A DNA stretch of 62,795 nucleotides, the filler included, from Hausera hauseri (taxonomy: Eukaryota), in NCBI GenBank assembly GCA_046269625.1. It is 12 parts of 12 records of this genome, joined end to end, with 100 filler letters (N's around TTAATTAATTAA, not from the genome) between each part and the next. Parts side by side here need not be neighbours in the genome. Positions count along the whole stretch, not along the records: positions 43,098 to 48,258 come from JBJURY010318383.1; 11 more parts are not named here. The stretch is one strand, 5' to 3'. Below the pieces are notes generated by a model that worked only from the letters and a program-made list of their open reading frames with translations, did not search any database and was not told the origin of the DNA. Both the position numbers and the translations under genes were made by a program. Below are positions 4,569 through 62,795 of this stretch, piece by piece (position 1 is the stretch's first letter; every line of letters begins with the position of its first letter).

Positions 4569-4777
4569 ATCGGGTCTTGGAAATTGTATGCCATTTTAAA
4601 TAAAGATTGGTTTTTGACATAAGTCAACTTGGTGAATTAAATAATTAAATTAATTAATTAAATTTTTAAGGTAATATTGCAAATCTGATTTAAATTTGAT
4701 AAAATTTGTTTCAAAATAAATAATTTGGATTGCAATAAAAATTTTCTACTGGTGCTTACTTTTCAATGAGTAATCTC

Positions 4778-23439: not shown

Positions 23440-23900
23440 GGTTTTTTCAGTTTTCACTATTTATGCAAAATGTATGAATTCAGATAAAAATGTTTATGTA
23501 AAATGTAGGCCTATGTTAAATGGAAACAGTCTTTTTATTTATTTATTTCTTTTTTAGTGTTATGCAAAATGTATTAACTGGAAGCAGTTTTTTTTTCAGT
23601 GTACAATGTTTATGTAAAATTTATATTCTTGGAAGCAGATTTTTTTTAGTTTACAATGCTTATGTAAAATGTACGTTAACTGGAAGCAATTTTTTTTCAG
23701 TTAACAATGTTTATGTAAAATGTATGTTAATTGGAAGCTGTATATTTTTCAGTTAAAAATGTTTATGTAAAGTGTATGTTAATTAAAAGCATTTTTTTCA
23801 GTTAGCAATGTTTATGTAAAATGAACATTAACATGTATTTTTTAAGTTAACAATGTTTATGTAAAATGTGTGTAATTGGAAGCAGTTTTTTTTACAGCTT
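23440..23900. repeat. Tandem ~55-60-bp minisatellite inside the hAT element
   Basis: About 8 imperfect copies of TTTTTTCAGTTAACAATGTTTATGTAAAATGTATGTTAAYTGGAAGCA. Confidence 0.85.
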
Positions 23901-31716: not shown

Positions 31717-34700
31717 CATACGATGGTGATCCGGACGGGTTAAATTAATTATTGAGAACTTATAAATTGCACGCAGAAGGTGACAGTCTTACTTTCGAAA
31801 TGACGATTAAACGTTTGACGTTATATTTGAAGAATTTAGCCGCTGATGCTTATAGCGAGCTCACTAATGATGAGAAGAAATCTTGGTCCTTCCCGGTAGG
31901 AGCATTAAACCGTAAATTATTGCCGACAGTAACGCCATAACAGAAGCTTATGGCATTTCAAAATAGAATGCAACAGAAGGGTAAATCGGTAACCCACTTT
32001 ACATTTGCATTGAAGAAACTCGCCAATAGTTACGTAAGTACCTTGAAAATAGTTAATGTAGCAAAAGCTAAAACAGACGCAGAACGAGATGCTGCGGAAA
32101 AAGCAACCCCGCCAGATTTGGACGTCATGATGACAACTCAATTAATTAATGGTATTTGGTCCCAAGACTTAATTAAACAGTTGACTTTGGCCAGACCGGA
32201 GAATTTCGAGAAAACTCTGCAATTGGCGCAAGACTTAGAAATGGCACTTGATAAATATGCCAGACACAACGATAGAAATGATCAAAATAATGATCGAAAT
32301 GACCGTAATGATAGAAATCGGAATGACAATCGTGGAATAGATGATAGACGATTTAATGGAAATAGAAATTATGAAAACAGAAATAATAATAATGACTACA
32401 GGAATAGTCGAAACAACAGTTATGCTAATTGCCGAAATATGAATAATTCAAATTCGAATAGAATCCGAGGAAACTACAAAAGTTCTAACTATCTAAATCA
32501 TGATGATAATAATCGAAATAATGATAGTCGAAGAAATGTAGATAGTATATAAAGTTTGCCGAATCAGTACAATAGAAGTATAAATAGGTCCAAGTCACCT
32601 GTGAAAGAAGACGGTCGACAAAGAGACGGCAGAAATGGAAATTTAATTTGTTTTACTTGCAATAAAGAAAGGCATGTTGCAAGGTCATGTCCCAATCCGC
32701 GTATCGTTTCATTTACTCAGCCTAATAAGACTAGTATGATTAAAGTTAATGAAAACTTAGAAGCAAAGTATGGTGTTCGTGGAGATACAGGTACTATTAT
32801 CGACATACAAGACTTGCGAAAATTTCTAGATGCTCAAGCTGAAACTAATCCACAAATTTTGATGGCTAAAAAAGATATGGAGATAAGCTAAGACTATAAG
32901 AAGTGTATCATGGTTTGGCAGAACCAGAAACTGAATATGAGTATGCGATGGCACCCAAGCGAATTGATATGATACGAAAAAAGTGTTCCGACGAGTAATA
33001 AAACAGCATATAAACAAGGAACTTTGAAAGAAGTCGACTTAGATGCAGACCCCGAGTTCACAGTTGAAAAGGTAGATAAGATTACCGAAGACGATATAGC
33101 TGAAAAAGAATTCATGGAGCCATTAATACTTAAAATTACGAAAAATAGAGGCCGCAGCCCCTTATTGGAAACGAAACGTAGAAGTCGTTCACGTTTGCAA
33201 GTAACTAGAGAGAAAATAAAAGAAACGAAAAATACGAACATCGCTGTAGAGAGCGACGTAGAGCCTAGCTTAAATAATCCAGAAATTGGTCCATTCACAC
33301 CTATCGAGGTAAAAGAATCTTTAGAATCAATTAACAAAATTAACAAGATTTGCCCACTTCCCATTAGTGAGGAAGAAACGGGAAATGGTCATGATTTTGA
33401 TCCAAGAAAGTGGAAAGTCCGACGTTGGTGGAAAAACGCCGATGAATTAAAGAAAATGAGAATTAGATGCCACGATCTAGAAATATTACAACGGAATTTA
33501 GAAAGGCTTAAGCAGATTAGCGAACAAGTAGATATATCTGGTAAAGAGCAACAATTTGCTGAGAGGTTATATAAAAGTTTAAAATTATGTAGTAAAGGAA
33601 AGCTCGATGAAGCAATCGACTTAGGACAACCTGAAGATGTACCACCTGAAACGTTGCTAAAATGGAAGCGTGAATTAGAATCATGGATTAAAAGTGGAGT
33701 CGAATTTTCGGAAGGATGGAGTAAAAATGAAGATAGTGTTGATGTAAAAGTCGCTAAAGTTCAGACGTTACTGTCTACTTTAGAAGCAAACCCAAAACTG
33801 AAGAGAGTAGCCCGTAATTTAGAGCGTATGATGGATGAAATTCGTTGTGCCATGATCAATCGGCTTAGAGAAAAACCGGTTAGCATTCGAAGTGATATCA
33901 ATTTAGAAATATTGGGTATAGACCCAGTAGATATTCCGCCCTTAATGGAGATGATACAAATCGCCTTTGCTGTACCCAAGCAATATACGAACTAAGAGAA
34001 TCGTATTAAATGGAAAATGAATGTGAACACAAATCTGCAGTTTGAGAAACCGAATTATGTTTTTAAATAACGAAGAAACCAAATACGTAATAAAAGCTTG
34101 TATCGTAGAATTTGATGAATATAAGCATGAGTTTAGTTATGTTGGCCGGATTATGAATTTCATAAAGGGTCCAGACGATGAATTAAAGGATGCATATAAA
34201 ATGCTAGATAAGGCCATATTGGCGAAGCTAATAATCGCCAATCAATTGTCGGAATGGTCCGAATTAGTAGTGAGATTATGAAAATTAGTGGAAGATCGTA
34301 GAAAAGAATTTCCAGAAAGCGAGCCTTCTATAAGGAAACAATTAGAAGAAAGTGCACGTAACTTAGATTCAATAAAAACGGAAATAGATATTTGCACTCA
34401 ATTCGAAGCATTACGACAATTAAATTTTATGAAGAAGAAGCAAGAAGTAATGATACTGGAAGAGATTTATAAAATGATGGAAGAAACAAACTTTACAGAG
34501 AAGCGAAATGACTTTCAATTTCTACCCAAGATTAAGAAACGTCCGACTAAAAGGAGTCCAACATTTAACAGATAAACTTATCGACGAAATTTCGATCCAA
34601 GATATCGAAACCTTAGATATTTGTCCAGAAAATAGAACAGTTTTAGAGGAAGGAATAAAATTTTTGCATGAACCACAAGAATGGATGGCCGGAACAGATC

Positions 34701-36600
34701 AGAATTGCTATACCGAGTTGACGAAAATAAGAAACGACCAACATCTTAGTTTTGAAGAGTCTAAGTTCGTAAAGAAATTACTCGATGCTATAGATCCCGA
34801 CTCAAAGTTCACTAATGAGATGTACGAGTTAGCTTTTCTCTTAGTAGAAATGGCAGAAATTAATGATGAGATGAGACAATTGATGCCAAAATTACGATAA
34901 GTTGAAGAAACATGCATCAGGACTAAACAAAGAGCAACCAAGTTAGACGAACTAATGAAGGAGTTCGAAGTCTATGGGAACAAATATACTTTTACCGAGT
35001 CAGAAATCAAAAATAAACGTGAATTTGTACAAAGATGGCAAAGATATGTAACTATTGAACTAACTGATTATCACCAAAAAGGACTCATCAATTCTAATGT
35101 ATTAGGCGAATTAGTGAAAATGATTCAATATGCCTGTGGAAATGGAATAGGTATCCGAACTACGCAGATGAAAGAAATACAACCGACACTTAAAGAAATT
35201 CGAGAGAATGTACAAAGGGCGCATACAACGTTAGTAGACTATGGACTTCTAGACGTTGGAAATGAACCGGAATGGGATGCGTACTTAGATGCACTAACGA
35301 CTGAGAATCCTGTGACTCCAGTACAGCTAAATGAAATAGAAACGTGTCCGCAGAACAGGAGATTCAATGTGGAGATGCCCCTGGATTCAGCGCTAACTGA
35401 AAAAGATTTAATTGAATTAATTAACGTAAATATTACCGAAAGTAAGTCAAGACAACTTATTCCGACCTTGATTGAATTATCTATTGAGAACACTACAGCG
35501 CGGTGTCGAAACTTTTGATAAGGAAATATGCTAAAATCTTGAGGGCTAAACCTGAAGTAGCGATGAAGGTAATGGTATCATCCGAGTGGATGGATGAAAA
35601 AGAATGTGAGTCAACTACGTATTCTTATGTAAGGAACGTAAGAGAATGATTAATAAATAATGGTGGAACAAACGAGTTAAACTATAGATTCTACTTTAGA
35701 GGTAGAATACTGGACGAATTAGAACAGTTAATAGATGTTGGAATTATCCCCGGCGAAGCAAATCGAATAGTCGTGATAATAGCCAATGAACAGACTAAAG
35801 AAGAAGCCACGCGTAAGGCTAAGACAGACCAATGCGTAGGACAAATCATGGGAGTCCGAGACGCTGCAATGTATTTCGAGTATTTACAAACGGATGATGA
35901 TAAGGAACAATACGATAAGAATTGAGTGTAACTGAGTGAAACGATAACCAATGTCCCAAGGCCGAAACGCCCAGTCGGTAGGCCTAAGAAGACGCTAGAA
36001 GAAGCTGACTATAATGGTGAATTGATTAGAGAATTGAGACAGATGTCGATTCTTACCTTCACCACAGACAATGAAGAATTTAATACGAATCATAAATTAT
36101 TTAAGCCTTCGAGGTGACATATTGGATGATAAAGAGAAGGCGATATTCAATGCAGCTAGGATGATGAAAAGTTCACGTTTCAAACTATCAAAAGGTAACT
36201 TAACCGATGAATCGGTAATCGAAAAAATCATTGTGGAAAACACCACTGAAGAATTAAGAAAAATATTACTATACTTCGCTATCAAAATAAACCCTAATCG
36301 AGAGAATGAAATTAATAGAGCTACAAGCTTAGCACGAAGAGCGGCGAGAAAGCTACCCTGCGAGTTAAATTGGTCGAGATTATTCGACAAGGGAGAAGAC
36401 AAACGGTTCGGTAATAGTAATAGACTCGAAGATACGTTATATAATTTGACAACGACGGATAATAGAAATCGGAATAATGAATCAAATTGGTTAATCAACT
36501 TACTCACCTTGATGATGCTAATAAAGCAAATAGGTGCTGTTACCGTCTATGACTGCGATAAGTTTAAACTAGGACAGAAGTGCTCTCGAATGGATTTAGA
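31717..36600 (+). mobile_element. Env-in-polyprotein retroelement, copy 2: Gag, CCHC, helical region, UBL, AT-hook, signal peptide, glycoprotein start; decayed
   Basis: Retrotransposon Gag capsid (YDGDPDGL...LRTYK...LYLKNLAADAY...QQKGKSVTHFTFALKKL...QLINGI). Knuckle CFTCNKERHVARSC at 32649-32690. UBL FYFRGRILDELEQLIDVGI at ~35560-35790. KRPVGRPKK at ~35965-35991. Hydrophobic NWLINLLTLMMLIKQIGA followed by VTVYDC. Confidence 0.88.
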
Positions 36601-36700: not shown

Positions 36701-39170
36701 GAAGCACTACGTAAACCAAATGGCATAAAGATATACTCATAAAGGCCAAATGGAGTAATAACAGCTGTTTTGGGACATCATCAGGTGCAACCGGAATTTG
36801 ATGATAAGCTTTATGCAAGTTAATTATGGAGTACGTGTTAGTGTTGGTATGACTGTGCAGGATGTCCTTTATGAGAGGTAAAGGGTAAGCATCCAGGGCT
36901 GTTAGTTTGTTTAACTGCCGATAGTAACCACATGGTCTGTAAGTGCCATCTTTCTTTGTCACTGCATGCAAAGGTGAACCCCATGGAGAGTTGTATCTTC
37001 GAATAAAGCCAGCCTTTTCGAGTTTACTGAACTCTGATTCAACGGCTTTTCGCCTACAATGTGACAGTGGTCTGACCTTTTGTCTGATAGGTCTTTGGTG
37101 TTCGGTGACTATATGGTTATAAGTTGTAGAATGCGGCTTAAAATTAACGTTTATCTTGAAAGTGCGGAAACAAGAAGTTTTGATGTAGGATTTAAGATTG
37201 AATTCCAACGATAAGAATGATGAGGGCATATTATTGGAAGAGTCAGTATCTGTAATTAATGTAGAATGATTGAACACTTCATTAAGGAAATTCGGTTCAA
37301 CCGACTGTTTCCAGATTGATTTGATCCCACTTAATGAAATTGGAAATATGGATGAATTATTAAGCGTATCGTTAGCAGCCGATGAACAGTATGTAAAATT
37401 GATAATTGAATGAACAGAGGAAAACAAGAAGGTGTACGACTTGTCGTCTGGTAAGCATTTGTTGGTATTTGCAACGTAGTTTCTGTGCAGGAGACATCTA
37501 TGTTTAGAGTCGACTAACAAATCGTATGCAGCCAGGAAATCGGAGCTTATTATTTGAGATCTTATACTGGCTATGTGAAATTTCCAATAGAATTTCCCTG
37601 TTAGGTTGGAGAATATGAAGGACTGTTTTGTGGTACCTACAATGTTCACGGGTTGACCACAGGCAGGGAAGAGTGGAGGAGAGAAAACTATGTTAGATAT
37701 AGGAGCAAAGTACAAAGGAAGAAGTGAAAAGGCAGCTCCTGAGTCGATAAGGATGTCTATGTGTGAGGTGTCTCCAAATAACAGTTCAGCTTTCAACAGA
37801 AAGACTGCAGAGGCTGTGTTGAAACGGCCAAAAGATTGAGCGATATTGCCTATACCAGAATGTGCCGTGGCATCTGGCGGCGTTACTAGTTTTTTGAGGC
37901 TTGTTGGGAAAAGAAGATGAACGATGAGTACGAGGAGGCGAAGAAGATGGGAAAAAACTAGAATTCTTTTTTATAATATTTGCATCCTGGCACATATGAC
38001 CTAGCCTGAGATTAGTATTTTGTGTGATAAATGCAGATTGGACTGTCTACTGCATAAAATGCGTCGTAAAATCTGCAGCCTAAAACAAATTTCCTTGCGT
38101 CTCTGCCGAATTTATTGTGATAAAACCGACTCATTCTTCCATCTTGAGATTTGGACCGGAAGCAGCGCCTGGAAAGGCTACGATTGCGCCAAACACGGTT
38201 TTCACTTCCTGTGGGCTGTAATCGCAGAAATTGCCTGTTTGAGTGTGTCGAACTGTTTCTGCATCATATGCAGTTGCTGTAAAAATAAAGTGTTATCTGC
38301 GTGTGGTGGCGTGTGAGCGGTTGCTGCAGCTACTGGTTATGAGTTATTTGATTGTAAGATGTCGAAATTTCTATCTGCCAACAATGCGAGTTTCTCGAGT
38401 GCCGTTGAATTGTCTACGACAGTAAGCAACGCTCTGATAGAGGTTGGTAGGGAAGAAAGAAAATACCGACAAAGAATATCGGCATTGTTTGTAGGAGTAA
38501 CACCTAAGGAGCTCAGTTGAAAGATTGCGGTTTTAAGGAAATCAGATGGCTTTTGATTTCCTATGGCATGTTCATTGAAGTATTTCTGTATTATTCTGTC
38601 AATGGAAGGATCGATAATAAGTAGGATTGATTCATACGTCATGTCATATGGATTTGAACATATGAGTATGTCGGCAAGATTACTGATTTGCTGTTTGATA
38701 TTTGCTGGAAGAAGCAGCAAGCTGTTCGCCCGCAAGAAAGAATCTGTAATGTGATTGGCTTTAAGCCATTGCAAATGGAATTGTAACCAGGTGCGACTCG
38801 AATTAGTTTTGTCAAGAAAAACATCTGTGCAAGGAAGATTTAGAGATGTGGTTGGTGTGGGGACAGCAGGACGATGACCAGATCTGGTCTTGGTGGAGTT
38901 TTCAGTATAAGAAGGATCGGGGTCCGATTCACCCTGTAGGCGGAAGTGGAGTCAGGTGGGTGGTTTGGGAGGAAAAGAAAGAAAATTGGTCATGGACGTT
39001 AAGTATAGAGCCATGATACGAGATAAAAGTCTGAGGAGTGGAGGAGGAAGGATAGATGTTTGTGAAGGCAATGTAAAGTATCTATGTGTGTCGAACTGAA
39101 GGTATAGAGGTGTATATTATTGAAAATAAATAAACAGGGATAAGGGATGCGGTGCAGTGGGCGCGGTCAC
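36701..39170 (-). mobile_element. CsRn1-like Ty3/Gypsy element: UBL leader, Gag with CHCC motif, protease, RT start; decayed
   Basis: Gag ITDSFLRANSLL...GNQKPSDFL...FLSSLP...LEKLALLAD. Degenerate C-x2-H-x9-C-x3-C motif near 37985-38035. Protease LIDSGAAFSLLP...IISSDFL. RT SPWGSPLHAVTKKDGTYRPCGYYRQLN...DAYPLP...AYHQIPVAPDDVPK. Confidence 0.88.
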
Positions 39171-39321: not shown

Positions 39322-40212
39322 TTAGATGACAATATACTGATATATGAATATCTCACAACAACCTTGTAATGATAGGGACTCGGAATCCCGATCATCCACA
39401 TATTCATCGATTAGTATTGGCTTCGAAGAAATACTTTTTTGGAAATTGGCGTTGGCTCGGATAAGTTTACCAAGTGCAGGTTGATCATCAGCCTCGTCAA
39501 TCTTAGTGATTGTATTATCCCAATCACGATAATCGTTTCTTTTTTTTAAATAATTTATGGTATTCCTTGGGTCAAGATACGTTTCAACAACGATAGGCCA
39601 CATTTCATCTATGATGTCAAACTTCGATAAATGTTCAACCCTCACTGGAGATGTTCTTAAATTGTTTAGATGTTTAATAATTTTCCATAGTAGCCCATTA
39701 TAACCGGTACGCATGGTTGCACAATACCCGTCTGTCAAATTAATTGTATTAAGGAAAATATCGATTGGATGCACAATGGTAATTCGATTAGGGGATTTAA
39801 CTGAAATGTCGGAAAACATTGCATCGAGAATGTTCAAAAGACCGATAAGAAAAAGCGAGTTCCATGGATATTCGGTAATGCATTTCATTATAGACGATAA
39901 GAGTTTAGATTCGGCGAGTATTGTATCCAACTTGGTATTTTTCAGTTTAATTAAATACACCACCAAAAATCCAAATTCCAATCGAATAGGATCATATGGG
40001 ATAATTTTATCTATATTGACAATTCCGGTTGGAATACTTGAAAATATTGACCTGAACCATTTTGAAGATCGAACAAAGTTCCATAGCTTGTCCAATTGGT
40101 TTTCGTAAAGGCGGATTGTGGCTACTGTCATGAAAATATTCACTTGGCTCAACGTAGTGGACAGAGTGACATTTAGCGAAGGTATGGTGTCTACTGTATT
40201 GAATTCATCCAT
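39322..40212 (-). pseudogene. SAPS-domain (PPP6R/SIT4-associated protein) C-terminal fragment
   Basis: PYDPIRLEFGFLVVYLI...SIMKCITEYPWNSLFL, RTGYNGLLWKII and WPIVVETYLDPRN match SAPS motifs (PLG..RL...L...F..Y.WNNFLH; R.GYMGHL..IAN; W..F....L...N). The N-terminal SAPS half is not present. Confidence 0.65.
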
Positions 40213-40289
40213 CGTAAACAGCCCAAGTCGAAATTGGTAAACACACCATTCAAGGGAATTTCCAGTCGAAAACACGATTTGTCATAACG

Positions 40290-42420
40290 ATTAATACACC
40301 AGGCCAATGGACCATTGGCTGAAACTAAATAATAGAAACCGCACGGTCCCAAAGCCTTCCACTTTATTTCGTCATTTGGAAACCAGGCATCATATTGATT
40401 TACATTTTTTACTATGGTCATGTCCATTTCAGAATATTCAGTAACGTGCTGAGCATATATTCGCTACTGCGCCCGGCTACTGGTGTCTTTTTATCATGTC
40501 GTATAAGTTGTAGCTTCTTTTCGGTAGTAAAGGTGCCATATTGAGCATAAGTACATTTGCCCAATATGCCATTAAACTCCTCTTAGAACACATAATCCGT
40601 TGAAATCGAGGAAGTTGACTCCATAGTGTAGACCTTGATTGAGGCAATGGTAACTCAATCTTCGTCGTATCGGTGAGAAAGACTTCCTTATGCAAAACAA
40701 ACAAGATCTCTGATCGTCTTAACCGGCTTCTTCTCAATTTTACTTATCAGTCCCATGTTTAACAAAGACTCCAGTAAATCGTTTATTTTACGGATATTTT
40801 TCCCCTGGATAAGATTCAGTAAAAGCGGTTCATTAAACGTGTTCAGATGTTCCAACGTTATCCATCTCAGAGAGTCGTTGGTCAAATAATCATGGAGACT
40901 ACACAAATAATTCCGTGGACCGAAAATCAAACAAAAAATCAACGAGGGCATTTTAAAAAGAATGCCATTGGCAGTAAATTCTCCCGATTCACACTTCATC
41001 CATAGGTGAAATGTATCTTTTCCACATATGGTCGTTAACGTACACATTAAAAACGAAGCTGTCCATCTTCAATTCGTCAGACAATTGAATTTCGGAATAA
41101 ATTCCATAGCAAATGTACTAAATGAATTCGTGAAGTAACTTCCGTTTCAACATTATTGGGAGATATGGTAGTTTAAAATCAGGAATAATTTGCGAATCAG
41201 AATGATTTGGTACTGGAAATCTTGATTTGACCAATATGTTTAAAACCGGACAAATTTTCTTTTTCTTCGATCTACCACTGAAGTGCGTCTCGATTCTGAA
41301 CTTACAAATGTTGCCATTATTGGCCTTAGCGAACATCAGTTGGCTATCGAATTTTTCCCTAAATAACTTATCCTCCTTTGTTATCCCCGAAAAAACAATC
41401 CATTTACACGACACGGTTTTCAACCCAGTATCGATATCAACGTTTATCATTTCCACTTGTTTCGCATAAACTGCATCTACCAAAATCCGACTGATACACT
41501 TTCTGTCCATAATTGCTTCCAAATTTCGACTTGCTTCCCAATCACGAATGAGTTTGATTGCCAACGGTGCTCCTTAAATAATCCACATTGATTTGATAAG
41601 TTCGATGAAATAATTATGTCGCTCTTGACGCTTACTGATGGGCATTTCAATATTGCCCATTTTCAATTGGTCATTGGTTGACAATTTTGATGAATTCAAA
41701 CCTTCAACATTCTTTTGACAGATTGCATAAAATGCCAGTGTTCGTTTTTTGATCGACTTTATACTACGCAACATTTGTTTATTTGAATCATTTTATCTAA
41801 AATACGTGATAAGTATCGTTTGGACATTTTGAATGCCAATCGGATTTCATTGAAACTTAGAGGTTGTTTAGCCAATAGTTCTACAATTTGCACTTCTATC
41901 GGTTTGTAATTGATCAATGGGACATGATCATTTGCTAAAGCAATATCCGGCAGTGGATCAGAGTCACTTTCTCGTGTGAGTATCAAATCTTCTGTATGCT
42001 GATGTAACTCTTCTAACGCTAATTTTACATCCTCTTGGGCTTTAATAAAACAAGCAGGTTTGTCAACATCGGCCTTATCATCATCGATACAAAAGTCCTT
42101 TTTATACTCTGCCAACCATTCTTCATTCGATCGACCTTCGTCCATATCACAGGAAACAACATGTTTATATGTAGCTGTGACTTTATCTAACCAATTTAAA
42201 TGCACTGCTCGTTTTAGAAATTTGTCATTCAGTTCAAGGATGTTATTAAAGGTTGACTTTAAAACACATTATGAAGTTCTCAGACGAATAAAGAAATTTT
42301 TGAAGGGATTGTTCAAAAACACTGTAAAATGGATGATAGAATTGTGATGTATGCTTTGGCGTATTGTGAAATATTTTCTGACACCAATCTGCTTCCGACG
42401 ATGATAAATCCATGAGCAGG
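40290..42420 (-). pseudogene. GTF3C1: Fragmented homolog of TFIIIC largest subunit (GTF3C1/TFIIIC220), central winged-helix region
   Basis: Collinear motifs: winged helix LSFNEIRLAFKMSKRYLSRILDKM; KRQERHNYFIELIK...MDRKCISRIL; LPYLPIMLKRKLLHEFI*YICYG (cf. GFLPKMPRL...H.FLWYLIYG); ILFKMPSLIF...YLTND...LESLLNMGLI; VFLTDTT...YWANV...PL; ALGPCGF. Contains in-frame stops and frameshifts. Confidence 0.65.
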
Positions 42421-43699
42421 TTCAGAAATTCCAGATCACAAAGAACGAAAATCCAGATAAGACGGATTGACAATACTTTATTTAGTTTCAAAATTCTTCA
42501 ACTCAATTAATCAATTTTTTACAATTATACATATATACATATATTTACAAAGGCCAAAACGTTCACGATAATCAGACTAAAACACCGCACTGTGATATCA
42601 CAAAATCCTTCTGCATGTTAGTTGGGAAAATTGTAGAAGTGTGAACTGAAGTAACAATCTCACATTCTCGTTGACAATCGATAATCCATAGGCGATTTAG
42701 GTCGTTGTTCGTACAAATTGGACGCTCCAATGTCACGAAAACTTTAATTTTTCTGACATGATTTTTTGTTTTCTTATTATTTGAATGCATGTCGTTGCGC
42801 GGATTTGTTTTGAGACACTTGTTTTTCTTTAGTGATAGAATTATTCGACTCAGTTAAATTGGAATCAAATTTTCTCAATGAGTCAGTCAAATAGCTGGCC
42901 GAATGATTGGAATCGGATGATAACGGTTATTGTTTTGATAATTTAAACTTTCCTAATCTGAATCGTAAATGTTAATTGACGTTACTTCAATTCGTGCNNN
43001 NNNNNNNNNNNNNNNNNNNNNNNNNNNNNNNNNNNNNNNNNTTAATTAATTAANNNNNNNNNNNNNNNNNNNNNNNNNNNNNNNNNNNNNNNNNNNNGTA
43101 GCAGAAGTATAATCTTTCTTCTGCTGTTTTTTCTTATTATTCGACTTCGAGGCATCTCCTCTACGTAATCTACATGATTTAGCTATATGCCCATATTTAT
43201 TACAATTAAAGCATTTTAGTCTCCCTTCGGAGTCTATATTAGGTAAGGATCTTCCATCCTTTTTAGTTCTCTTTTTATAACTTACTTTTTCTCCATCATT
43301 CCGTAGATTGAATCTAACTTTCTTTTCTCCGTCTGACTCGGCTTCTGTAGCTGACGTCTGGGAAGGACTTCTATTTCTGTCGTAACGCTGATACTTTTGG
43401 GTACTATTGTTTCGTCTTTTATCGTAGCTATTATTATTGCTTTTAGATCTGTTCCACCTATATAGTTCCGCGTCTCGTTCAGCTTTCCGTGCCTTTCTTA
43501 TTGCTTCTTGGAACGTCGGTGGGTCTGCTTGAGAAATTATCGTTCTTAATCTTTCTTCTAATCCGTATTGGAACTGGGATGTTTTCGTCTACGGGTATCC
43601 ATACTTCTCCAAATTTTCTATCCTTAGCATTTTTCACGCCTTTATTCGGTCTGATTTCTAGTAACTTCCCTGTTTGTAAATCGATTGCTATATTTGGTA

Positions 43700-43990
43700 A
43701 TCTTTTCAGTAGATCACATCCTAGAACTACGTAATCGGTTAATTGCTCCATAACTGCAACTTCATGATGGAAAAACTGTCCAACTATTTGAACTTCTGGG
43801 TTCCATTTAAACATTGGTTTCGACATTTGGCCAAAAGCTCCTGTACTTCCTGGATCTTTCGTAGACGGTGGATATAACTGTCCTCTCAGCGTTTGAGATA
43901 TTGAATCATTTTTGATGTAAGACATCTCAGAGCCCCTATCAATTAATGTATAAACCTCCCAATCTTCAATAATAATCTTAGCGAAAGGTC
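43700..43990 (-). pseudogene. Retropepsin-type aspartic protease
   Basis: RPFAKIIIEDWEVYTLIDRGSEMSYI...GAFG...VVLGCDLL. The catalytic DTG/DSG reads DRG here; AGG is one change from ACG. Confidence 0.8.
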
Positions 43991-44689
43991 GTCCTTCGAT
44001 TACTGTTCGGAAACAATTTGACGCTACGCTTGGACGTTTGATCACCGATATTTTATGTCCATTGATTCGGATTTCTGGGGAGGATACTATGTTCTCCGAT
44101 ATCTGTCTTAACTCTTCGCTTGGATATAATTCGTTGTTTTCGATGTTTAATTCCGCCGTTTCGTGAGTACTAATTAACGATTCTCGATTGTTAGTGTGTA
44201 GCTCGGTATGTTGGAAGGTTTTTAACCTCGGTTTATCCCAAACCATCGATCTAGTTTCTATATTTTTAGGTTCTCTTGGTGAGTATAACATCTTGGAATC
44301 ATCGGTGGTTTGTCGATAGCACATTCTTCGTAAAATCCCGTATCGTTTGGTTCATTCATAAGGGTCTTCTACGTTGATTGTTCTTTTATAGATTTTCGTC
44401 TGATATGAGCTCATTGAACGTTTATCACAATCTTTATAGAATGGGGCGGAAGGAGGTAGCATAGGCAACGGCGCTTTAATGACAGAGTAAGTCTTATGTC
44501 GGTTTATTCCTGAAAGCGCTTCTCCTCCCTTAGGTTCGTCATCATCTGAATCATTTCTTCGCGAATTATGTTTTGTAAATTTCCGCTTTCGCAAGAATAT
44601 GGACCTTCCTCTTCGTTTATAACAATAGTAACTGACATGGCGTTCTACGTCCCATTTCCATCTATTCTCTTCGTATGCCTTTAAGAATT

Positions 44690-46449
44690 TTGCAAAAGGC
44701 GTTATAATTGCAGTCAATATCTTACATGAAAATCCAGTCAATGTAAATATTTCATAGCCATTTATTACTGCTTGGATGACTGCTTTAATTATGTGTATCA
44801 GAAAATAAATAGGTAAGAATCCGGATGCAGCTTGTCCGAATATCAGAAATCTTCCCCGTATTTTGTATAGTATCTCAGTTGTCACTCGCGGATAATGGTT
44901 TACGCCAAGTAAAGATTCCCATTTAGCCTGGTATCGTGTATCGTCCACTACAGAAGCCATAGCTCGATTTAACTCGTGTGTTCGCTGTCGTGGGAAGGCA
45001 AGGAATTGCTTAAAAGCCTCAATTTCCTTCGGTCTGTGTATGCCTTTCGATGAAGTGTCCTGAAATTTATCGTCTGTAATTCCTTTCGCGAGATTTAGTC
45101 ATGTTAATTTATTTGGAGCGGCAATAATACCTCCATTTGGCAAACTGACCCAATCTGTCTCATTACGTCTAAACATAGGTTCTCCTAAGCTTGCCTTACA
45201 ATTTTTAAGAATGGTCGGTTGGGTAGCGTTGTCCAATAACACTCGTCAGCGGTGTAGCTAATCTTGGAATATTTTGGTAAATAACAGGAAGTTCCTGAAT
45301 GCAACGTTTTTTCTAAGTTGATAGGTACATCTCTCTTTTCACATTCATAGGTTATCAATACTTCACTTGTAACTCAACCGAATATTCCTTCTCTCATAGG
45401 AATTATTGGAAAAGCCAGTTCTGAGTTTGCATATATCAGAGCCATTTTCGTTCTCATGATTTCCGTATCCAATTTGAAATCATTCATTATCATTTTATGA
45501 TATAATTCTGTTATTCCGACTTGTCCTTTGTAGTAAAAGTAATCGTCTCTATTCTTCAGGTAATCTTCGATGCGGACATCCTGCGTTTCTAATTTATAAG
45601 CTTTTGCATTTATTCCCGTTTCTGCGACGAAAAATGCCCCATAATTCGTAGCAAACATCACTACATCACAGCGAAAGATCACCTCTTTTTTAATAGATTT
45701 CAATCCATGTTGATTCGAGATTAATATAGTGGTTGTAGAGTGTTCTGATACATCCTCACGTGTCCTGGAGTTGGTTTCCGATTTGTCCACATATCGCTTT
45801 CCTGTAGTCTCATTAAACTTTAGTTCCTTAATTTTAATAAACTTGCAACATCTTTTAGAGAGGAGGCTCCCATATTATAACCGAACTTCTAAAAGTACAG
45901 GTTCTGTTTTGTAAATGACATTTTTGATTCTCGGTATATAGTTCGGTGACAATATGGAACATTACTTTCTGTGATCGCATTTCTGATTCGTAGAAATCCA
46001 CAACCACCACGTTTGCTTCTAATCCTTTTTCGGTGTCGTATTCTGCTCCATTACAATGTCCGCTATGCATATCCAATCTTCTGGCCACTATTTTGTATGC
46101 CCTGATTATTTTTCCTGGTTGCATCTCTAATTGCATACTATCCCATTGTACTCTTCCAGTTTCCTTGGCTTGTTTGCAGTGTTGGCGTTATAAGTACAGT
46201 GGAATTAGTGGAGTGGTTGGCTTGATTATGGATAAGTGTCCGTGTACCAACCCACAGTGAAAAATGCTGCGTGATCGTCTTAGCATAAATTCCATTCCAT
46301 TTAGCGATATCAGTTCTTGCTGCTGATACAGGAAGTAATTTTTCTATTTTGTATCCAACTTGTGTGGTCTGGCATCTTCGCATACTTCCAGATCCATTAG
46401 GGAATACTCTGTCCTCATTTAAACTTATTGCAGTCGTAAACGGTTACAG
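44690..46449 (-). pseudogene. Chuvirus-like (class III, herpesvirus gB-fold) envelope glycoprotein, frameshifted
   Basis: Starts VTVYDC after a signal peptide. Cys spacing C...C-x8-CG...C...GHCNG..Y...VVV...C-x5-C...IIWE; LYHKMIMND.KL..EIMRTKMAL..ANSELA; G..GRVT.EVL..YEC; LATPLTR; GI..PKEI..F..FLAFPRQR; FLIFGQAASG...IIKAVIQAVINGY...GFS.KILTAI. This follows the chuviral/Anakin-type glycoprotein pattern as recalled; no search was run. Confidence 0.75.
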
Positions 46450-48358
46450 CGCCTATATGCTTTACTAGCATCATCAAGGTGAGTAAGCTAATTAGCCAAT
46501 TTGATTTATTTTTCCGGCATCCAACGTCTGCCGTGGTCAAATTACGTAGCATATGGTCGAGTTTATTACTGTTTCGTCTGTCTTCTTTACTGTCAAATAG
46601 TCTTGACCAATTTACTTTATAGGGCAATCTTCTTGCTGCTTTTGGTGCTAGGCTTACAGCTCTATTGATTTCGTTCTCTCGATTAGGGTTTATTTTGACA
46701 GCCAAGTATAGTAGTACTTTTCGCAACTCCTCGTTGGTGTTTTCCACCATGATATTTTGATTACCGATTCGTCGGCTAAATTACTTTTCGATACCTTAAA
46801 ATGTGAACTTCACATCCTACTGGCTGCATCGAAAATTATTTTTTCTTTACCATCTAGTGTGTTAATCCGGAGACCCGAATAATTTACAATTCGTATTAAA
46901 TTCTTCATTAACTCATTTAATTATTCGTTACTTGTACTAAATGTCGGAATCGACATCTGTCTTAGTTCTTGAATCAATTTTCCGTTATAATCAAGTTCTT
47001 CTCGTGTCTTTTTAGGCCTGCCAAATGGGCGTTTAAGCTTTGGGCCTTTAGCGGTTAGTTCACTCCGTGGTACTAAATTTATATCGTATTGTTCCTTGTC
47101 TTCATCCGTTTGTAAATACTCTAAATACATTGCAGCATCTCGGACGCCCATAATTTGTCCTACGCATTGCTCTTCCTTAGCTTTGCGAGTAGCTTCTTTT
47201 TTGTCTGTTCGTTAGCCATCGTTACTACTATTCGGTTTCTTTCGCCGGGAGTAATCCCGATATCTATTAATTGTTCTAGGTCGTCGAGTATTTTGCCTCT
47301 AAAATAAATTCTATAATTTAGCTCATTTGTTCCGCCATTATGTAACAACCATTCTCTAACGTCCCTTACATAAGAGTAAGTGGTTAGCTCACATTTTTTT
47401 TTGTCCATCCACTTAGACGATACCATTACTTTTACCGTTACCTCGGGTTTTGCCTTCAAGATTTTAGCATGTTTCCTTATCAAAAGTTTCGGCACCGTGT
47501 TATAAATGGTATTCTCACTAGATAATTTAGTTAATGTAGGAATAAGTTGTCTTAACTTACTTTCAGTAATGTTTACATTAATTAATTAAATTAAATCTTT
47601 TTTAGTTAGCGCTGAATCCAGGAGCATCTCCACATTGAATTTCTTGTTCTGCGGACACGTTTCTATCTCATTTAGTTGCACTGGAGTCGTGGGTTTTTCG
47701 GCCGTTATTGTCTCTAAGTACGCATCCCATTCCTATTCATTTCTTATATACGGAAGTCCATAGTCTACTAAGGCTATATTCATTCGTTGCACATTTTCTC
47801 GGGTTTCTTTCAATCTCGGTTATATTTCTTTCATCTGCGTAGTTCGGAAGCCTATTCCGTTTCCACGGGCATACTGAATCATTTTCAATAATTCGCCTAA
47901 ATTATTGGAATTGATAAATCCCTTTTGGTGATAATTAGTTAGTTCAATAATTACATCCCTTTGCCATCTTTGTACAAATTCTCGCTTTTTTATTTCTAAT
48001 TTTGTAAAAGCATAACTGTTTTGATAGATTTTGAGTTCTTTTGCTAGTTCATGCAGTCTCGTTGCTCTTTGTTTTGTTTTGATACATGTTTCTTCTACTT
48101 GCTGTAATTTGGGCATCAGTTGCCACATCCTCTCATCATTAATCTCCTCCATTTCCACCAATAGGTAAGCTAGCCCATATATCTCGTTTATGACTTTTGA
48201 ATCTGGATCCATTGCATCCCGCAATTTCTTTACGAATTTAGCTTCCTGAAAACTGAGANNNNNNNNNNNNNNNNNNNNNNNNNNNNNNNNNNNNNNNNNN
48301 NNTTAATTAATTAANNNNNNNNNNNNNNNNNNNNNNNNNNNNNNNNNNNNNNNNNNNN

Positions 48359-48660
48359 GACATGAGAGAAGATGAAAAAAAATTATGGAAGGGGATTATG
48401 GGAGAAGATGAAGAGGGATTATGGGAGAAGATGAATGGAGATTATGGGAAAAGGTGAATGGGAAATATGGAAGAAGGTGAAGGGGGAATATGGGAGAGGA
48501 TGAAGGGGAATATAAAAGAAGATGAAGGGGATTATGAGAGACGATGAAATGGGGAATGAGAGAAGGTGAAGGGGGAATATGAGAGAAGATGAAGGGGGAT
48601 ATGAAAGAAAATGAAGGGGATTATGAGAGATGAAAGGGGATTGAGAGATGATTATGAGGA
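48359..48660. repeat. Purine-rich minisatellite (~22-nt unit)
   Basis: Repeated GAAGATGAAGGGG(G)ATTATG(G/A)GA-like units. The 48419-48739 minus-strand ORF is a by-product of the repeat. Confidence 0.85.
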
Positions 48661-50989: not shown

Positions 50990-51500
50990 TTCCGTATCAT
51001 CTCTTAACTTCGATTAAAAATTTTTTGACTATCATTCCTGGACCTTCGTACTTGATATCTCTTTTACCACGTACTTTCTGTGTCTGTTTCTGATATTTTC
51101 AATAACTCTCATTTCATTTTCATCATACCTGTTTCGTTTTTCTGTAAGCTATAGTTTTAATGTTTTACCCTAAAACAACTTCCACTGGATCGCAAGTTAG
51201 TGTCGTTTTGAGGAAAAATCCAATTTCTGGCAATAAATCTGATCGAAATTTTCCTTCTTTTATGCAAGCCCAAAGTAAATCCCTAATCGTTCTAAACTGC
51301 CTTTCAATCATGCCATTTGCGCATTGGTGATAAGGACTAGAATGAGATATTTAAAATCCATGTTTCTTTGCACATTCCTTGAACAAGTTTAATTCAAACG
51401 TTTTTCCTATATCGCAACATATTTTCTCGGCAGCTCCAACATTTAAAATCCATTGATTTGTAAATGTATATAATTATAAGATACATACACCCATTCTTTG
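50990..51500 (-). mobile_element. Decayed Gypsy integrase fragment
   Basis: WILNVGAAEKICCDIGKTF, SSPYHQCANGMIERQFRTIRD and YEGPG, interrupted by stops. Confidence 0.65.
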
Positions 51501-52433: not shown

Positions 52434-55400
52434 TGATGGTGATCCGGACGGGTTAAATGAATTCTTGAGAACTTATAAATTGCACGCAGGTGCTAGTCTT
52501 ACTCCGGAAGTGATGATTAAACGTTTCTCGTTATATGTGAAGAATTTATCCCCCGATGCTTATAGCGAGCTCACTAATGATGAGAAGAAATCTTGGTCCT
52601 TCCTGGGAGGAGCATTGAACCGAAAATTATTGTCGACAGTATCGCCGGAACAGAAGCTTATGGCATTTCATAATAGAGTGCAACAGAAGGGTGAATCGTT
52701 AACCCAGTTTGCATTTTCATTAAAGAAACTTGCTAATAGTTATGTAAGTACTTTGAGAATAGCTAATGTAGCAAAAGCTAAATCAGACTCAGAACGTGAT
52801 GCTGCAGAGAAGGTAACCTCGCCAGATCTAGACGTCATGATGACGACTCAGTTAATTAATGGTATTTGGTCCCGAGATTTAGTTAAACAGTTGATTTTGG
52901 CCAGATCTGAGAATTTTGACAGAACTCTGCAATTGGCCAAAGACTTAGAGATGGCACTCGATAGATATGCCAGACACAATGATAGAAATGATAGAAATAA
53001 TAACCGGAATAATCATAGCGATCGAAATCGGAGTAATAACCGTTGAAGAGATGATGGACGATTTAATGGTAATAGAAATTATGAGAATAGAAATAGTAAT
53101 AATGACTACTGGAATAGTCGAAACAATAATTATGCTAATGGCCGAAATATGAACAAGTCGAATTCCAATTCGGATAGAAATCGAGGAAACTACAAAAGTT
53201 CTAACTATTCAAATCGTTATGTTGATAATCGAAATAATGATAGTCGACGAAATGCTGATAGTATACAAGGGTTGTCGAACCAGTATATTAGAGATACAAT
53301 TAGATCTAAATCACCCGTAAATGAAGACGTCGACAAAGAGTTGGCAAGAATGGAAATTTAGTTTGTTTTACCTGCAGTAAAGAAGGACATATTGCCAGGA
53401 CATGTCCAAATCCACGCAGCGTTTCATTTACTGAGCCTAATAAGACCAGCATGATTAAAGTTAATGAAAACTTAGAAGCAAAGTATGGTGTTCGTGGAGA
53501 TACAGGTACAGTTATCGACATACAAGACTTGCGAAAATTTCTAGATGCTCAACCTGAAAATACTATTCCACAAATTTTTATGGTCAGAAAAGTATACGGA
53601 GATAAGCTAAGACTATTAAAAGTGTATCACGGTTTAGCAGAACCAGAAACTGAATATGAGCAAGCGATAGCACCTAAGCGAATTTATATGATACAAAAAA
53701 GTGTTCCGATGAATAATAAAACAGCTGATAAACCAGGAACTTCGACCGAAGTCGACTTGGATGCAGAACCCGAGTTCACGGTTGTAAAAGTAGATAAGAT
53801 TGCCGAAGACGATATAGATGAAAAAGAATTCATGGAGTCATTAATACTTAAAATTACGAAAAATAGAGGCCGCAGCCCTTCACTGAAGAGGAAACGTAGA
53901 AGTCGAAAAATATGGTTGAAACGAAAAATTCGAACATCGCTGTAGAGAGCGACTTAGAGTCTAGCTTAAATACACCAGAAATTGGTCCATTCACACCTAT
54001 TGAGGTAAAGGAATCTGCAGAGTCAATTAACGAAATTAACGAGATTTTCCCACTTCCCACTAGTGAGGAAGAAACAGGAAATGTTGATGATTTTGATCCA
54101 AAAAAGTGGATAGTCCGACATTCGTGAAAAACGCCGATGAATTAAAGAAAATGAGAATTATATGTCACGATCCAGAAATATTACAACGGAATTTAGAAAG
54201 GCTTAAGCAGATTAGTAAACTAGTAGATATACCCGGTAAAGAGCAACAATTTGCTGAGAGGTTATATAAAAGTTTCAAATTATGTAGTGAAGGAAAGCTG
54301 GATAATTTAGGACAACCTGAAGAGGTATCACCTGAAACGTTGCTAAAATGGAAGCGTGAATTAGAATCATGGATTAAATGTAAAGTCGAATTTTCGGAAG
54401 GATGGAGCAAAAATGAAGATGGTGTTGATGTAATAGTCGCTAAAGCTCAGACGCTACTGTCTACCTTACAAGCAAACCCAAAACTAAAGAGAGTAGTCCG
54501 TAATTTAGAGAATATGATGGATGAAATTCGATGTGCAATGATTAATCGGCTTAGAGAAAAACCGGTTAACCATCGAAGTGACGTTGATTTAGAGATATTG
54601 AGTATAAACCCTGTAGATATTACTCTCTTAAGGAAGATGATAAAAATCGCTTTCGCTGTAACTAAACAACATACGAACCTAGAGAATCGAATCAAAATGG
54701 AAAATGAAAAGAGAACACAAATTTATAGTTTTAGAAACCGAATTGTCTCCAAACAACGAAGAAACCAAATACGTAGTAAAAGCTTGTATAATAGAGTCTG
54801 ATGAATATAAGGATGAATTTAGTTATGTCAGCCGGATCATGAATTTCATAAAAGGTCCAGATGATGAATTAAAGGATGCATATAAGATGCTAGACAAAAC
54901 TATATTGGCAAAGCCAGTAATCGCTAATCAATTGTAGGAATGGTCTGGATTAATAATGAGATTAAGCAAATTAGTAGAAGATCGTAAGAAAGAATTTCCC
55001 GAAAGCTAACCATCTATAAAAAGGCAACTAGAAGAAAATGCACGACATTTAGATACAATAAAGGCGGAAATAGATATCCGGACTCATTTCGAAGCATTAC
55101 GGCAAATAAATTTTATGAAGCAAGAAGTGACGATATTGGAAGAGATATATAAAATGATCGAAGAAACAAACATTACGGAAAAACGGAATGACTTGTAATT
55201 TTTACCCAAGATTAAGAAACGTCAGACTAGAAGAGTCCAACATTTAACAGCTAAACCTATCGACAAAATTTCAATCCTGGACATCGAAACCTTAGAGATT
55301 TGTCCAGAACATAGAACAGCTGTAGAAGAAGCAATGAGATGCATACACAAACCACAGGAATGTATGGCCAGAACAGATCAAATTTGCCATACCGAGTTGA

Positions 55401-58400
55401 CAAAAATGAGAAACGACCACCATATTAGCTTTGAAGAATCTAAGCTTATAAAGAAATTGCTCCATGCAATAAATCCCGATTCAAAAATCATTAATGAAAT
55501 GTACGAGTCAGCTTTTCTCTTAGTAGAAATGGCAGAGATTAGTGATAAGATAAGACAATTGATGCCTAAAATAAGACAGGTTGAAGAAACATGCATTAAA
55601 ATTAAACAAAGAGCAACCAGCATAGACGAACTAATGAAAAATCTCGAAGTCTATAGGAAAAAATATGCTCTTACCGAGTCAGAAATCAAAAATAAGCGAA
55701 AATTTGTGCAAAGATGGCAAAGGGATGTAATTATCGAACTAACTGATTATCACCAAGAGGAATTCATCCATTCTAATGAATTAGGCGAACTATTGAAAAT
55801 GATTCAATACTCCTGTGGAAACGGAATAGGTTTCCGAACTACGCAGATGAAAGATATACAACCGAGATTGAAAGAAATCCGAGAGAATGTACAAAGGATG
55901 AATACAGCACTAGTAGACTATGGACTTCCAGATGTTTGAAATGAGCCGGAATGGGATGCGCATTTAGATGCGATAACGGCCGAAAATCCTGTGACTCCAG
56001 TACAGCTAAATGAAATAGAAACGTGTCCGCAGAATAAGAGATTCAATTTGGAGATGCTCCTGGATTCAGCGCTACCTGAAAAAGATTTAATTGAACTAAT
56101 TAGCGAAACATTACTGAAAGTAAGTTAAGACAACTTATTCCGACTTTGACTAAATTATCTAGCGAGAACACAGTTTATAGCGCGGTGCCGAAACTTTTGA
56201 TAAGGAAATACGCTAAAATCTTGAGGGCTAAACCTGAAGTAACAATGAAAGCAAGCATATCATCCGAGTCTATGGATGAAAAAGAATGTGACTTAACTAC
56301 GTATTCCTATGTAAGGGACGTAAGAGAATGGTCAAAAAATAATGGTGGAACAAGCGAGTTAAACTATAAATTCTATTTTAGAGGTAGAATATTGGACGAT
56401 TTAAAACAGTTAATAGACGTCGGGATTATCCCCGACAAAATAAATGGAATAGTGGTGATACTAGCCAATGAACAGACTAAAGATGCCACGCGTAAGGCTA
56501 AGACAGAACAATGCGTAGGACAAATCATAGAAGTCCGAGACGTTGCAATGTATTTTGAGTTTTTACAAACGGATGAGGACAAGGAACAATACGACACGAA
56601 TTTAGTGCCACTAAGTGAAACGATAACATATGCTCCAAGACAGAAATGCCCAGTTGGTAGACCTAAGAAATTACGAGAAGAAGCTGACTATAATTGAGTA
56701 TTAATTAGAGAATTGACAGATGTCGATTCCTACCTTCAGCACAGACAATGAATAATTCAGCGAATTAATGAAGAATTTAATACGCATTGTAAAATATTCA
56801 AGCCTTCGAGGCGACACATTAGTCCATAAAGAGAGGGCGATATTCAATGCAGTTAAGATGAGAAGTTCACGTTTTAAATTATCAAAAAATAACTTAATCG
56901 ATGAATTGGTGATCGAAAAGATCATGGTGGAAAACACCGTTTAAGAATTAAGAAAAGTATTACTGTACTTAGCTATCAAAATAAACCCTAATCGAGAGAA
57001 TGGAATTAATAGAGCTACAAGCTTAGCATGAAAAGCGGCGAGAAAGCTACCCTGCGAAGTAAATTGGACGAGATTATTCAATAACGAAAAAGATAAACGG
57101 TTCGGTAATAGTAATAGACTCGAAGATATGTTACATAATTTGGCAACGACGGATAATAGAAATCGGGAAAACGAATCCAATTGGTTAACTAGCTTACTCA
57201 CCTTGATGATGCTAATAAAGCATATAGAGAAGGAATTCTCTAATGGATTTAGAAGTGTGTGAGGACGCCAGACCACATAAACGGGAAACAAGGGAGAAAA
57301 GTTACTTCCTATATCAACAGCAAGAATTAATATTGTTCAACGGAATGGAATGTATGTTGAGACGATCTCGTAGTACTTTTCACTATGGATNNNNNNNNNN
57401 TACTTCAATAATGAAACCAACAACTCCTCCAATCCCAATGAATTTGGAACGCCAGGATTGTAAGCAGGCCAAGGAAACCCGCGGATTAAAATGGGATAGT
57501 ATGGAACTAGAGATGCAACCGGAAAAGATAATTAGAGCATATAAAGTAGTGGTTGGAAGGCTAGATATGCATAATGGACATTGTAATGAAGCAGAGTATG
57601 ATACCGAAAATAGACTAGAAGCAAACGTAGTGGTCGTAAATTTCTATAAATCGGAGATGCGAGTAAAGAAAGTAATGGCCCATAGCGTCACCAAATTATA
57701 TACCGAGAATCAAAAATGCCATTTACAAGACGGAACCTGTGCCTTCACAAGTTATGTTATAATATAGAAAACTTCCTTTGGAAGAAACTGTAATTTTATC
57801 AAAATCAAGGAATTTAAATTTAACGAAACTACCGGAAAGCGATATGTAGATAAATCCGATACCACCTCAAGGACACGCGAGGATGTAGCAGAACACCCTA
57901 CACCTACTATATCGATCTCCGACCAGCATGGACTAAAATTTATTAAGAACGAAATGATCTCTTGTTGCTAAGTGGTCATGTTCGCCACTAATTGTGAAGC
58001 ATTTTTCGTCGCAGAAACGGAAATAAATGCGAAAACGTACAAGCTAGTAACGCAGGACATTCGGATTGAGGATTAACTGAAAAACCGAGATGATTACTTT
58101 TATTACAAAGGACAAGTTGGAATAACCGAATTATATCACAAAATGATAAAGAACGATTGTAATTGGATATGGAAATCATGAGGACAAAATTGGCTCTTAT
58201 TTATGCTAATCCTGAGTTAGCCTCTCTCATAATTCCTGAGAGAATGAATTTTCGATCGCGTTACCGTTGAAGTCCTATTGACTTATGAATGTGAGAAAAG
58301 AGACGTACCAATCAACATTGAAGAAAAACATTGCATACAAAAATTCCTCTTTTCTTTACCACAATACTCCAAGGTTAGCCACACCGTTTACTAGAGTGTT

Positions 58401-58452
58401 ACTAGACAATGCAACTGAACCAACAATCCTTAAAGATTGTAAAGCAAGTTTA
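52434..58452 (+). mobile_element. Env-in-polyprotein retroelement, copy 4: Gag through glycoprotein ectodomain; decayed
   Basis: Gag, intact knuckle CFTCSKEGHIARTC (53364-53405), UBL FYFRGRILDDLKQLIDVGI, PVGRPKK, signal peptide and glycoprotein (MDLEVCEDARP...GHCNEAEY...CHLQDGTC...LATPFTRVLLDN). All lie on one contig and strand, apart from a 10-N gap at 57391-57400. Confidence 0.88.
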
Positions 58453-62700: not shown

Positions 62701-62795
62701 TGCAGACAAGAACGACAAATATTTTATCTGCCGACATTTACCTCTTCTATGAAATATATTTCAGGCATCGAAAATTTGGTAGCAAATTTTCTGTC
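59780..62795 (+). mobile_element. CsRn1-like Ty3/Gypsy element: UBL leader, Gag (CHCC), protease, RT, RNase H; decayed, runs off window
   Basis: Gag ITDSFVRANSLL. CIYHNNYQSQARSCVPGC is the CHCC motif typical of the CsRn1 clade. Protease INSGA...IGSDFL. RT MPFGLRSAYQTF...Y.DDI-like...KCNFFQKRVNFLGH. RNase H PLEFFSRKL...HELLAI...TDHKP. Confidence 0.9.

Follow-up and report, generated by a model that had tools for sequence, protein, structure and literature searches.

A decayed class III env gene between gag and protease in a high-copy, likely Ty3/Gypsy retrotransposon family of a probable flatworm

The window, the whole stretch of 62,795 nucleotides analysed here, consists of 12 unrelated contigs of 4.0-7.2 kb each. 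Eleven identical artificial spacers of 100 bases (N44-TTAATTAATTAA-N44; 4778-4877 to 58453-58552) separate the contigs, and any synteny across the joins is false. Self-comparison of the window recovers four members of one repeat family, each on a separate contig (Table 1). The copies are not genome neighbours, as the separate contigs and the spacers between them show. The four family-bearing contigs are 4.7-6.0 kb long and every one ends within the element. Copies 2 and 4 are 85.9% identical over 4848 columns, copy 3 is 77-78% identical to both of them, and copy 1 is about 64-73% identical, in patches.

Each of the four copies is a fragment of a single family, which encodes, in this order, a Gag, a zinc knuckle, a coiled region, a ubiquitin-like domain, a leader, an Env and a protease. 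The order Gag, CCHC knuckle, accessory region, leader and Env is seen in copies 2 and 4. The order accessory region, leader, Env, tail and protease is seen in copy 3. The Gag-Env and Env-protease linkages therefore come from different contigs, and the full order is pieced together from them.

Table 1. Members of the Env-bearing family in the window and features of copy 3.
Feature	Position	Strand	Evidence or remark
Copy 1	26923-31616	minus	more distant member; Gag to accessory region; stops short of env
Copy 2	31717-36600	plus	Gag to first env codons; VTVYDC at 36539
Copy 3	43098-48258	minus	carries the env under study
Copy 4	52434-58452	plus	Gag capsid-like 52435-53046; CCHC 53361-53411; accessory region; partial env 57230-58452
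Coiled/helical accessory part	47823..48257	minus	cut by contig end; weak coiled-coil Pfam matches; common to copies 1, 2 and 4
Ubiquitin-like domain, between Gag and Env	47244..47408	minus	Pfam ubiquitin E 0.0044, under cut-off
Helical stretch preceding leader	46500..46780	minus	relatives have a Bcl-2-like domain at the same position
Hydrophobic leader, likely internal signal sequence	46448..46498	minus	in frame with upstream ORF; hydropathy 1.8
gB-type (class III) env pseudogene, copy 3	44690..46447	minus	Pfam PF24664; tblastn with intact relatives; hydropathy; stop counts
Env ectodomain, copy 3	about 46447-44850	minus
Hydrophobic anchor region, copy 3	44852-44694	minus	hydropathy
Charged tail/linker past anchor	44355..44689	minus	same frame as protease ORF; one stop (44352-44354) between
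Retropepsin-like protease, start of pol	43659..43994	minus	catalytic motif degenerate; Pfam RVP E 0.014
C-terminal part of a different Gag with CCHC knuckle, behind protease	43098..43575	minus	zf-CCHC E 1.5e-5

The env of copy 3 is a pseudogene that is full length but dead. Its Cys-rich ectodomain opens with VTVYDC at 46447, directly behind the leader and two bases from the start first proposed (46449). Tblastn with intact relatives covers 46406-44676 in four frame segments, with combined E values down to 1e-60. Pfam PF24664 (Monjiviricetes_fusion) matches at 44352-45098 (E 5.8e-18; 64.6 bits against a cut-off of 27) and, in a second piece, at 45374-45874 (E 0.003). The tblastn result and the stronger Pfam match lie well above chance level. 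The C-terminal env frame contains the expected KGI, AFP, FLIFGQAASG, INGY and GFS motifs. Hydropathy peaks mark a signal sequence and a C-terminal anchor in copy 3, and 19-residue windows in the anchor region reach 2.04. The same type of leader precedes an xYDC motif in the relatives. The leader of copy 3 is thus a likely internal signal sequence, with cleavage inferred. The reading frame is interrupted by four frame switches, near 46410, 45865, 45310 and 45240, and by five in-frame stops. The description of this env as near complete is accurate for its length and not for its integrity.

The other copies hold remnants, as had been predicted. The env of copy 4 lacks the first ectodomain stretch with VYDC and is truncated by the contig end. 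It matches PF24664 at E 6e-6 and is 78.6% identical to that of copy 3 over 1267 nucleotide columns. Its long frame contains three stops and one N gap. Only the first ~20 env codons are present in copy 2.

Upstream of env, a capsid-like Gag frame opens copies 2 and 4 and matches the relative P0010 (E 4e-5). After it, both copies have a stretch rich in Asn and Arg and then a single CCHC knuckle; ~3.7 kb coding for the accessory region separates this knuckle from the leader and env. Within the accessory region, the evidence for a ubiquitin-like domain is weak but converging, and each score is under the curated cut-offs. With a four-row profile against PDB, all 60 rows among the matches listed have a ubiquitin fold; the best single-domain E value is 0.003, and the values for poly-ubiquitin are inflated by repeats. 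The piece is homologous to relative P0086, with a score of 89 against a peak of 58 in 500 shuffles. It gave only leads under 0.9 in the Atlas, and the frame had no match in a word-based protein search, which is weak evidence. A GRP(K/R)K motif, which we take to be AT-hook-like, recurs between the ubiquitin-like domain and env, at ~47030 (minus) as well as in copies 1 and 4 and in relatives P0004, P0007 and P0011.

The helical stretch ahead of the leader occupies the position of a Bcl-2-like domain in the relatives. Pfam Bcl-2 is matched by P0003 (E 2.7e-5) and P0001 (E 0.0086), both below the cut-off. The stretch in the window aligns loosely to this domain and lacks the GGW motif of the relatives, and the one Bcl-2 match that involves it rests on the motif of the relatives. 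Taken alone, the window copies give no Bcl-2 sequence match (hhalign probability 0.9%). Pairwise scores do not stand out from the shuffles, of which 26, 29 and 184 in 500 are equally high. A model of the stretch (pLDDT 44) has no fold match, and the Atlas returned no usable match.

Downstream of env, the protease of copy 3 is matched by tblastn with P0007 (E 2e-7) and P0086 (E 1e-7). Behind it lies a piece of a different Gag, which the family's own Gag matches only in the knuckle and a low-complexity part. Forty-one contigs of public run X1 diverge from copy 3 at 43575, and the junction is therefore probably private to this copy or an assembly chimera. The foreign Gag piece is probably a nested insertion, a recombination product or an assembly chimera. 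No RT, RNase H, integrase or LTR belonging to the Env-bearing family is found on its four contigs. As candidates for its pol, two RT fragments (36701-37970 and 61040-62795) were rejected; they lie on other contigs, behind a different Gag and protease of their own. Two decayed copies of another Gypsy family, 68% alike and seemingly env-less, occupy 36701-38950 (minus) and 59600-62795 (plus) and have their own Gag, protease and RT. Integrase fragments are also present at 13308-13940 (minus) and 51255-51464 (minus).

The longest natural env frame is found in copy 4 (57237-58160; 308 residues). Of its cysteines, eight occupy alignment columns in which 31-34 of the 34 rows have Cys. A fold model was built on the frame of this sister copy with an alignment of 33 relatives (pLDDT 87 and pTM 0.74 for the ectodomain). 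Judged by its structural matches, the model fits the class III architecture, in which a PH-like domain holds an inserted beta-rich fusion domain and the long central helix comes next. In a Foldseek search of PDB with this model, herpesvirus gB is on top (E 3.8e-7) and baculovirus GP64 appears at rank 31. In VIA-align, herpesvirus gB takes ranks 1-5 (best Z 9.1, rmsd 6.6, 237 aligned), followed by Chandipura and rabies G (rhabdovirus) and Bourbon virus GP (thogotovirus). In BFVD, the glycoproteins of chu-like viruses and xinmoviruses lead (E 1e-15, TM 0.70). An env profile run against PDB sequences finds gB in 23 of 26 rows, yet at E values of 0.39-1.6. Because class III relatives supplied the guiding alignment, the model is not independent of the sequence match; it confirms the fold of the family and adds no independent proof for this copy. 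Together with PF24664, these models support a class III, gB/chuvirus-G-like fold for env, in agreement with the fold class and chuviral similarity that had been anticipated.

A HMMER search with env against 1.84 billion representatives returned 82 matches, 13 of them at E<=1e-10. The top matches (E 1e-22 to 1e-10) are polyproteins of Ty3/Gypsy-type elements, either Env-Pol or Gag-Env. The first stand-alone glycoprotein has E 2e-8; among named chuviruses, Lishi spider virus 1 (Chuviridae) scores best, with E 5.8e-7. A word-based search of longer proteins only with the C-terminal env frame gave no match, which is weak evidence. Domains were scanned in 28 of the 82 matches, including 11 longer proteins among the best 15. 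A retropepsin lies behind env in nine of these 11 top relatives. Three also contain RT/RNase H and two also integrase, and a Gag or CCHC knuckle stands in front of env in two. In the cluster mates P0083 and P0086, env, protease, RT, RNase H and integrase occupy a single ORF. The nearest env relatives show the PR-RT-RH-IN order, their domains including Integrase_H2C2 and RT_RNaseH. Neither the window frames nor the scanned relatives contain a Pao-specific Pfam domain. The likely Ty3/Gypsy membership of the family rests on these domains of its relatives.

Tandem retropepsin-like domains (at least two) follow env in P0083 (seven stretches), P0007, P0001, P0011 and P0014. In some relatives, C2H2 or ankyrin motifs lie between them. 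P0002 (2627 aa), an Env-PR-RT-RH-IN polyprotein, is labelled a hypothetical protein of a Flavobacteriaceae metagenome bin and is probably animal DNA inside a bacterial bin.

In summed tblastn on copy 3, 11 Gag-Env-Pol polyprotein rows score 177-296 bits and four named chuvirus proteins 0-95 bits. By this score, the polyproteins are 2-3 times closer to env than the named chuviruses. Identity to the copy-4 frame is 13-20% in the aligned chuvirus rows and 17-25% in the polyprotein rows. In the 36-row tree, the copy-4 frame branches among the polyproteins (SH-aLRT 99, stem 1.1). In the 27-row tree, all three pieces of copy 3 fall within the polyprotein clade (SH-aLRT 100); for this tree and the AU tests, 11 env rows were dropped because of long branches, near-duplicates and speed. 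The trees are quick and unrooted, have long branches and draw their taxa from matches to the env query, and they contain no Anakin, Burro, Schmidtea or nematode env. The AU test rejects trees that nest the copy-4 ectodomain with three Chuviridae (p-AU 0.0004) and does not reject a position of copy 4 outside the polyprotein clade (p-AU 0.089). The C-terminal piece of copy 3 alone is ambiguous. Its best tree places it between the groups and not in the polyprotein clade (support 94), and the AU test does not reject its nesting with three Chuviridae (p-AU 0.067).

Between the env sequences of copies 3 and 4, 115 of 305 third codon positions differ, against 50 of 305 first positions and 32 of 304 second positions (p 1e-16). 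This bias towards third positions shows past purifying selection: env served as a functional protein while the subfamilies split, and it decayed after insertion. The same third-position trend extends to Gag and to the coiled, ubiquitin-like and pre-env parts.

The family was found in three public runs. In run X1, which may be kin to the source and gives no independent support, 15,505 contigs align to copy 3 at >=85%, mostly with <95% identity, and their number is not a copy number. All 30 bins of copy 3, including the env-protease interval, have coverage in runs X1 and X2. Contig depth along copy 3 is uneven, and no contig of the public runs spans the whole stretch.

The host is a probable flatworm, judged from a Ski2 helicase gene on a different contig from env. 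This gene is one intronless open frame of 1079 codons (1356-4595, minus). Schistosoma mattheei gives its top match at 780 bits, with the runner-up at 699, and the highest identity is to a tapeworm row (52% across half the length). By this assignment, the host is probably no arthropod. Other contigs contain an uninterrupted hAT transposase frame with a BED finger and a dimerisation domain (21417-23234, plus) and a host gene with a 1579-codon frame, C2H2 fingers and two or three repeated Cys/His modules (5334-10073, plus). At 39322-42300 (minus), several short open stretches resemble host-gene exons and have no Pfam match of weight. Short diverged tandem arrays lie at 23479-23897 and 48388-48648.

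These data make it highly probable that the locus carries a decayed class III env between gag and protease, in a high-copy and likely Ty3/Gypsy errantivirus of a probable flatworm, and that this env was likely inherited and not recently captured from a chuvirus. Weighing against this reading, Env and protease of copy 3 have a stop between them, and a foreign Gag piece lies behind the protease. Two origins had been proposed, capture from a negative-strand RNA virus lineage and inheritance from a gB-type retrotransposon env pool. Of the two, inheritance is the one supported, by the polyprotein scores and by the rejected nesting of copy 4 with three Chuviridae. The label of a captured chuvirus-like glycoprotein, as in the arthropod element Anakin, is not upheld. 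Most trees with chuvirus and polyprotein rows place env among the polyproteins, with the C-terminal piece of copy 3 as the ambiguous case. An Anakin-style, lineage-specific event, in which an env-less Gypsy element took its glycoprotein from a chuvirus or a related negative-strand RNA virus, is improbable. In its favour, the Pfam family is that of the Monjiviricetes fusion protein, chu-like G proteins are the nearest viral models, the C-terminal piece is not firmly placed, and a chuvirus with a platyhelminth host is listed in Table 1 of PMC10084718. Against these points, polyprotein env is far closer than any named chuvirus G, a long and well-supported branch separates the polyprotein and chuvirus groups, nesting of the copy 4 ectodomain with the three Chuviridae is rejected, and env has the same position in many divergent relatives. 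The trees favour inheritance within a retrotransposon env lineage and are silent on the first owner of the gene. It is still conceivable that the gene passed between such elements and negative-strand RNA viruses very long ago, whichever way it went.

Two other readings concern the element and not the source of its env. If the Env-protease link of copy 3 were an assembly chimera or a nested insertion, the family could be a non-autonomous Gag-Env element without pol. This is very improbable. The odd junction on the same contig, the uneven depth without a spanning contig and the absence of an RT of the family from the window would fit such an element. However, the Env tail and the protease ORF share a frame, the top relatives mostly have a protease behind env, and the interval between the two is covered in X1 and X2. 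It is scarcely credible that env is an endogenous viral glycoprotein outside any element, or a host gene domesticated as a fusogen or for antiviral defence. Solo chuvirus glycoproteins have been reported from mosquito genomes (PMC7642597), and the third-position bias indicates selection. The same bias in Gag and the accessory region, however, is expected if a whole active element was selected. All three env-bearing copies sit within the same Gag-containing element, copies 3 and 4 have stops and frame switches, and thousands of divergent contigs match. The inherited env of a gag- and protease-bearing family remains the preferred reading.

The closest published layout is that of the GAG-ENV-POL errantiviruses (Chary and Hayashi, eLife 2026; PMC13524379). 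There, the errantiviruses of Nematoda, Bryozoa and Platyhelminthes are described as carrying only gB-type env, in that gene order, and an ancient origin is argued for over recent viral capture. Nine flatworm elements are listed, with up to 215 copies in Schmidtea; the published elements are intact and 12-18 kb long. The family in the window is like them in its gB-type env between gag and pol, its hydrophobic leader and anchor, its multiple copies and its probable flatworm host. Unlike the intact published elements, the copies in the window are decayed fragments (PMC13524379). The cysteine pattern and motifs of domains I-II resemble those of six Schmidtea mediterranea rows (elements 1-6, PMC13524379), by eye and unscored. 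The main text of PMC13524379 does not contain the words 'ubiquitin', 'accessory', 'Burro' or 'polyprotein' and so leaves the accessory region undescribed, but its figure supplements may cover these domains.

Burro/GYPSM1, a giant Gypsy element of planarians, is described as having Gag-CCHC, Smc, ubiquitin/SUMO-like and BCL2 motifs, an in-frame env and a protease, with an internal region of up to 25 kb (PMC6431247). Its env matches 'gypsy Env' and the fusion proteins of arthropod and fish mononegaviruses, and its env class is ambiguous (PMC6431247). By description only, the family in the window is like Burro in part, in the order of a Gag with CCHC, a coiled region, a ubiquitin-like domain, env and a protease. 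Burro has two or three knuckles and the window family one seen. The Gag-to-Env span of the latter is about 4.8 kb, and its Bcl-2 domain is unproven, unlike the BCL2-like motif of Burro. MATH, BIR, ankyrin and AIR1, which are Burro motifs, have no Pfam match in the scanned window frames, which are broken and incomplete.

Other retroelement and viral glycoproteins are more distant. Anakin is a BEL/Pao element of mosquitoes with a chuvirus glycoprotein (PMC7642597), and the arthropod Jg-EVEs are separate events (PMC10084718). The window family is like both in having a glycoprotein of the same Pfam family and fold class within an LTR retroelement. Unlike Anakin, its relatives show Ty3/Gypsy-type domains, with env ahead of pol, and most trees keep its env out of the chuvirus and wasp group. 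The Chuviridae G proteins (Lishi spider virus 1, Hubei chuvirus-like virus 1, Yichun mivirus and Wufeng shrew chuvirus 2) are homologous to it, share its cysteines and are its nearest viral models. They are stand-alone proteins of about 650 aa and form a separate clade from the window env. The nematode non-canonical ERVs (Sacco et al. 2022, cited in PMC13524379) share the position of env before pol, have nematode hosts, and are credited in the title of that report with capture of an RNA-virus glycoprotein.

Judging from the intact relatives, active ancestors of the family would have made one Gag-accessory-Env-Pol polyprotein. Directed by the internal leader, the ectodomain would enter the ER lumen. 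The C-terminal anchor would then bring the chain back to the cytosolic side and keep protease, RT and integrase together with Gag, and the individual proteins would be cut free by signal peptidase and the retropepsin of the element. The ubiquitin-like and possible Bcl-2-derived domains may act as accessory host-interference modules, as proposed for Burro. Both gB and VSV G are trimeric membrane-fusing proteins. By analogy with them, Env trimers could mediate fusion of particles with further cells within one animal and provide a route to stem or germ cells. The broken copies in the window cannot carry out these steps. The cell-to-cell infectivity suggested for the element is thus excluded for these copies and may hold for ancestors or unseen intact copies.

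With the window, the known gB-type GAG-ENV-POL retrotransposons, whose layout is already published (PMC13524379), gain a large and decayed family. This family also joins the gB-type class to the Burro domain order of ubiquitin-like, possibly Bcl-2-like, env and protease. The link is absent from the main text of PMC13524379 and did not turn up in literature searches on Burro and flatworm env. In a broader reading, which is doubtful, flatworm Burro-like retroviruses would encode one polyprotein with ubiquitin-like and Bcl-2-derived modules ahead of a gB-type fusogen. The fusogen class would have been swapped if Burro env is F-type, and the long-diverged retrotransposon env clade could be the source of chuvirus G rather than its recipient. 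The broken copies make the questions raised by the family no more testable than the intact Schmidtea elements do. Those questions are how a polyprotein with a membrane-spanning fusogen in mid-chain is processed, and whether such elements may move from cell to cell in stem-cell-rich flatworms.
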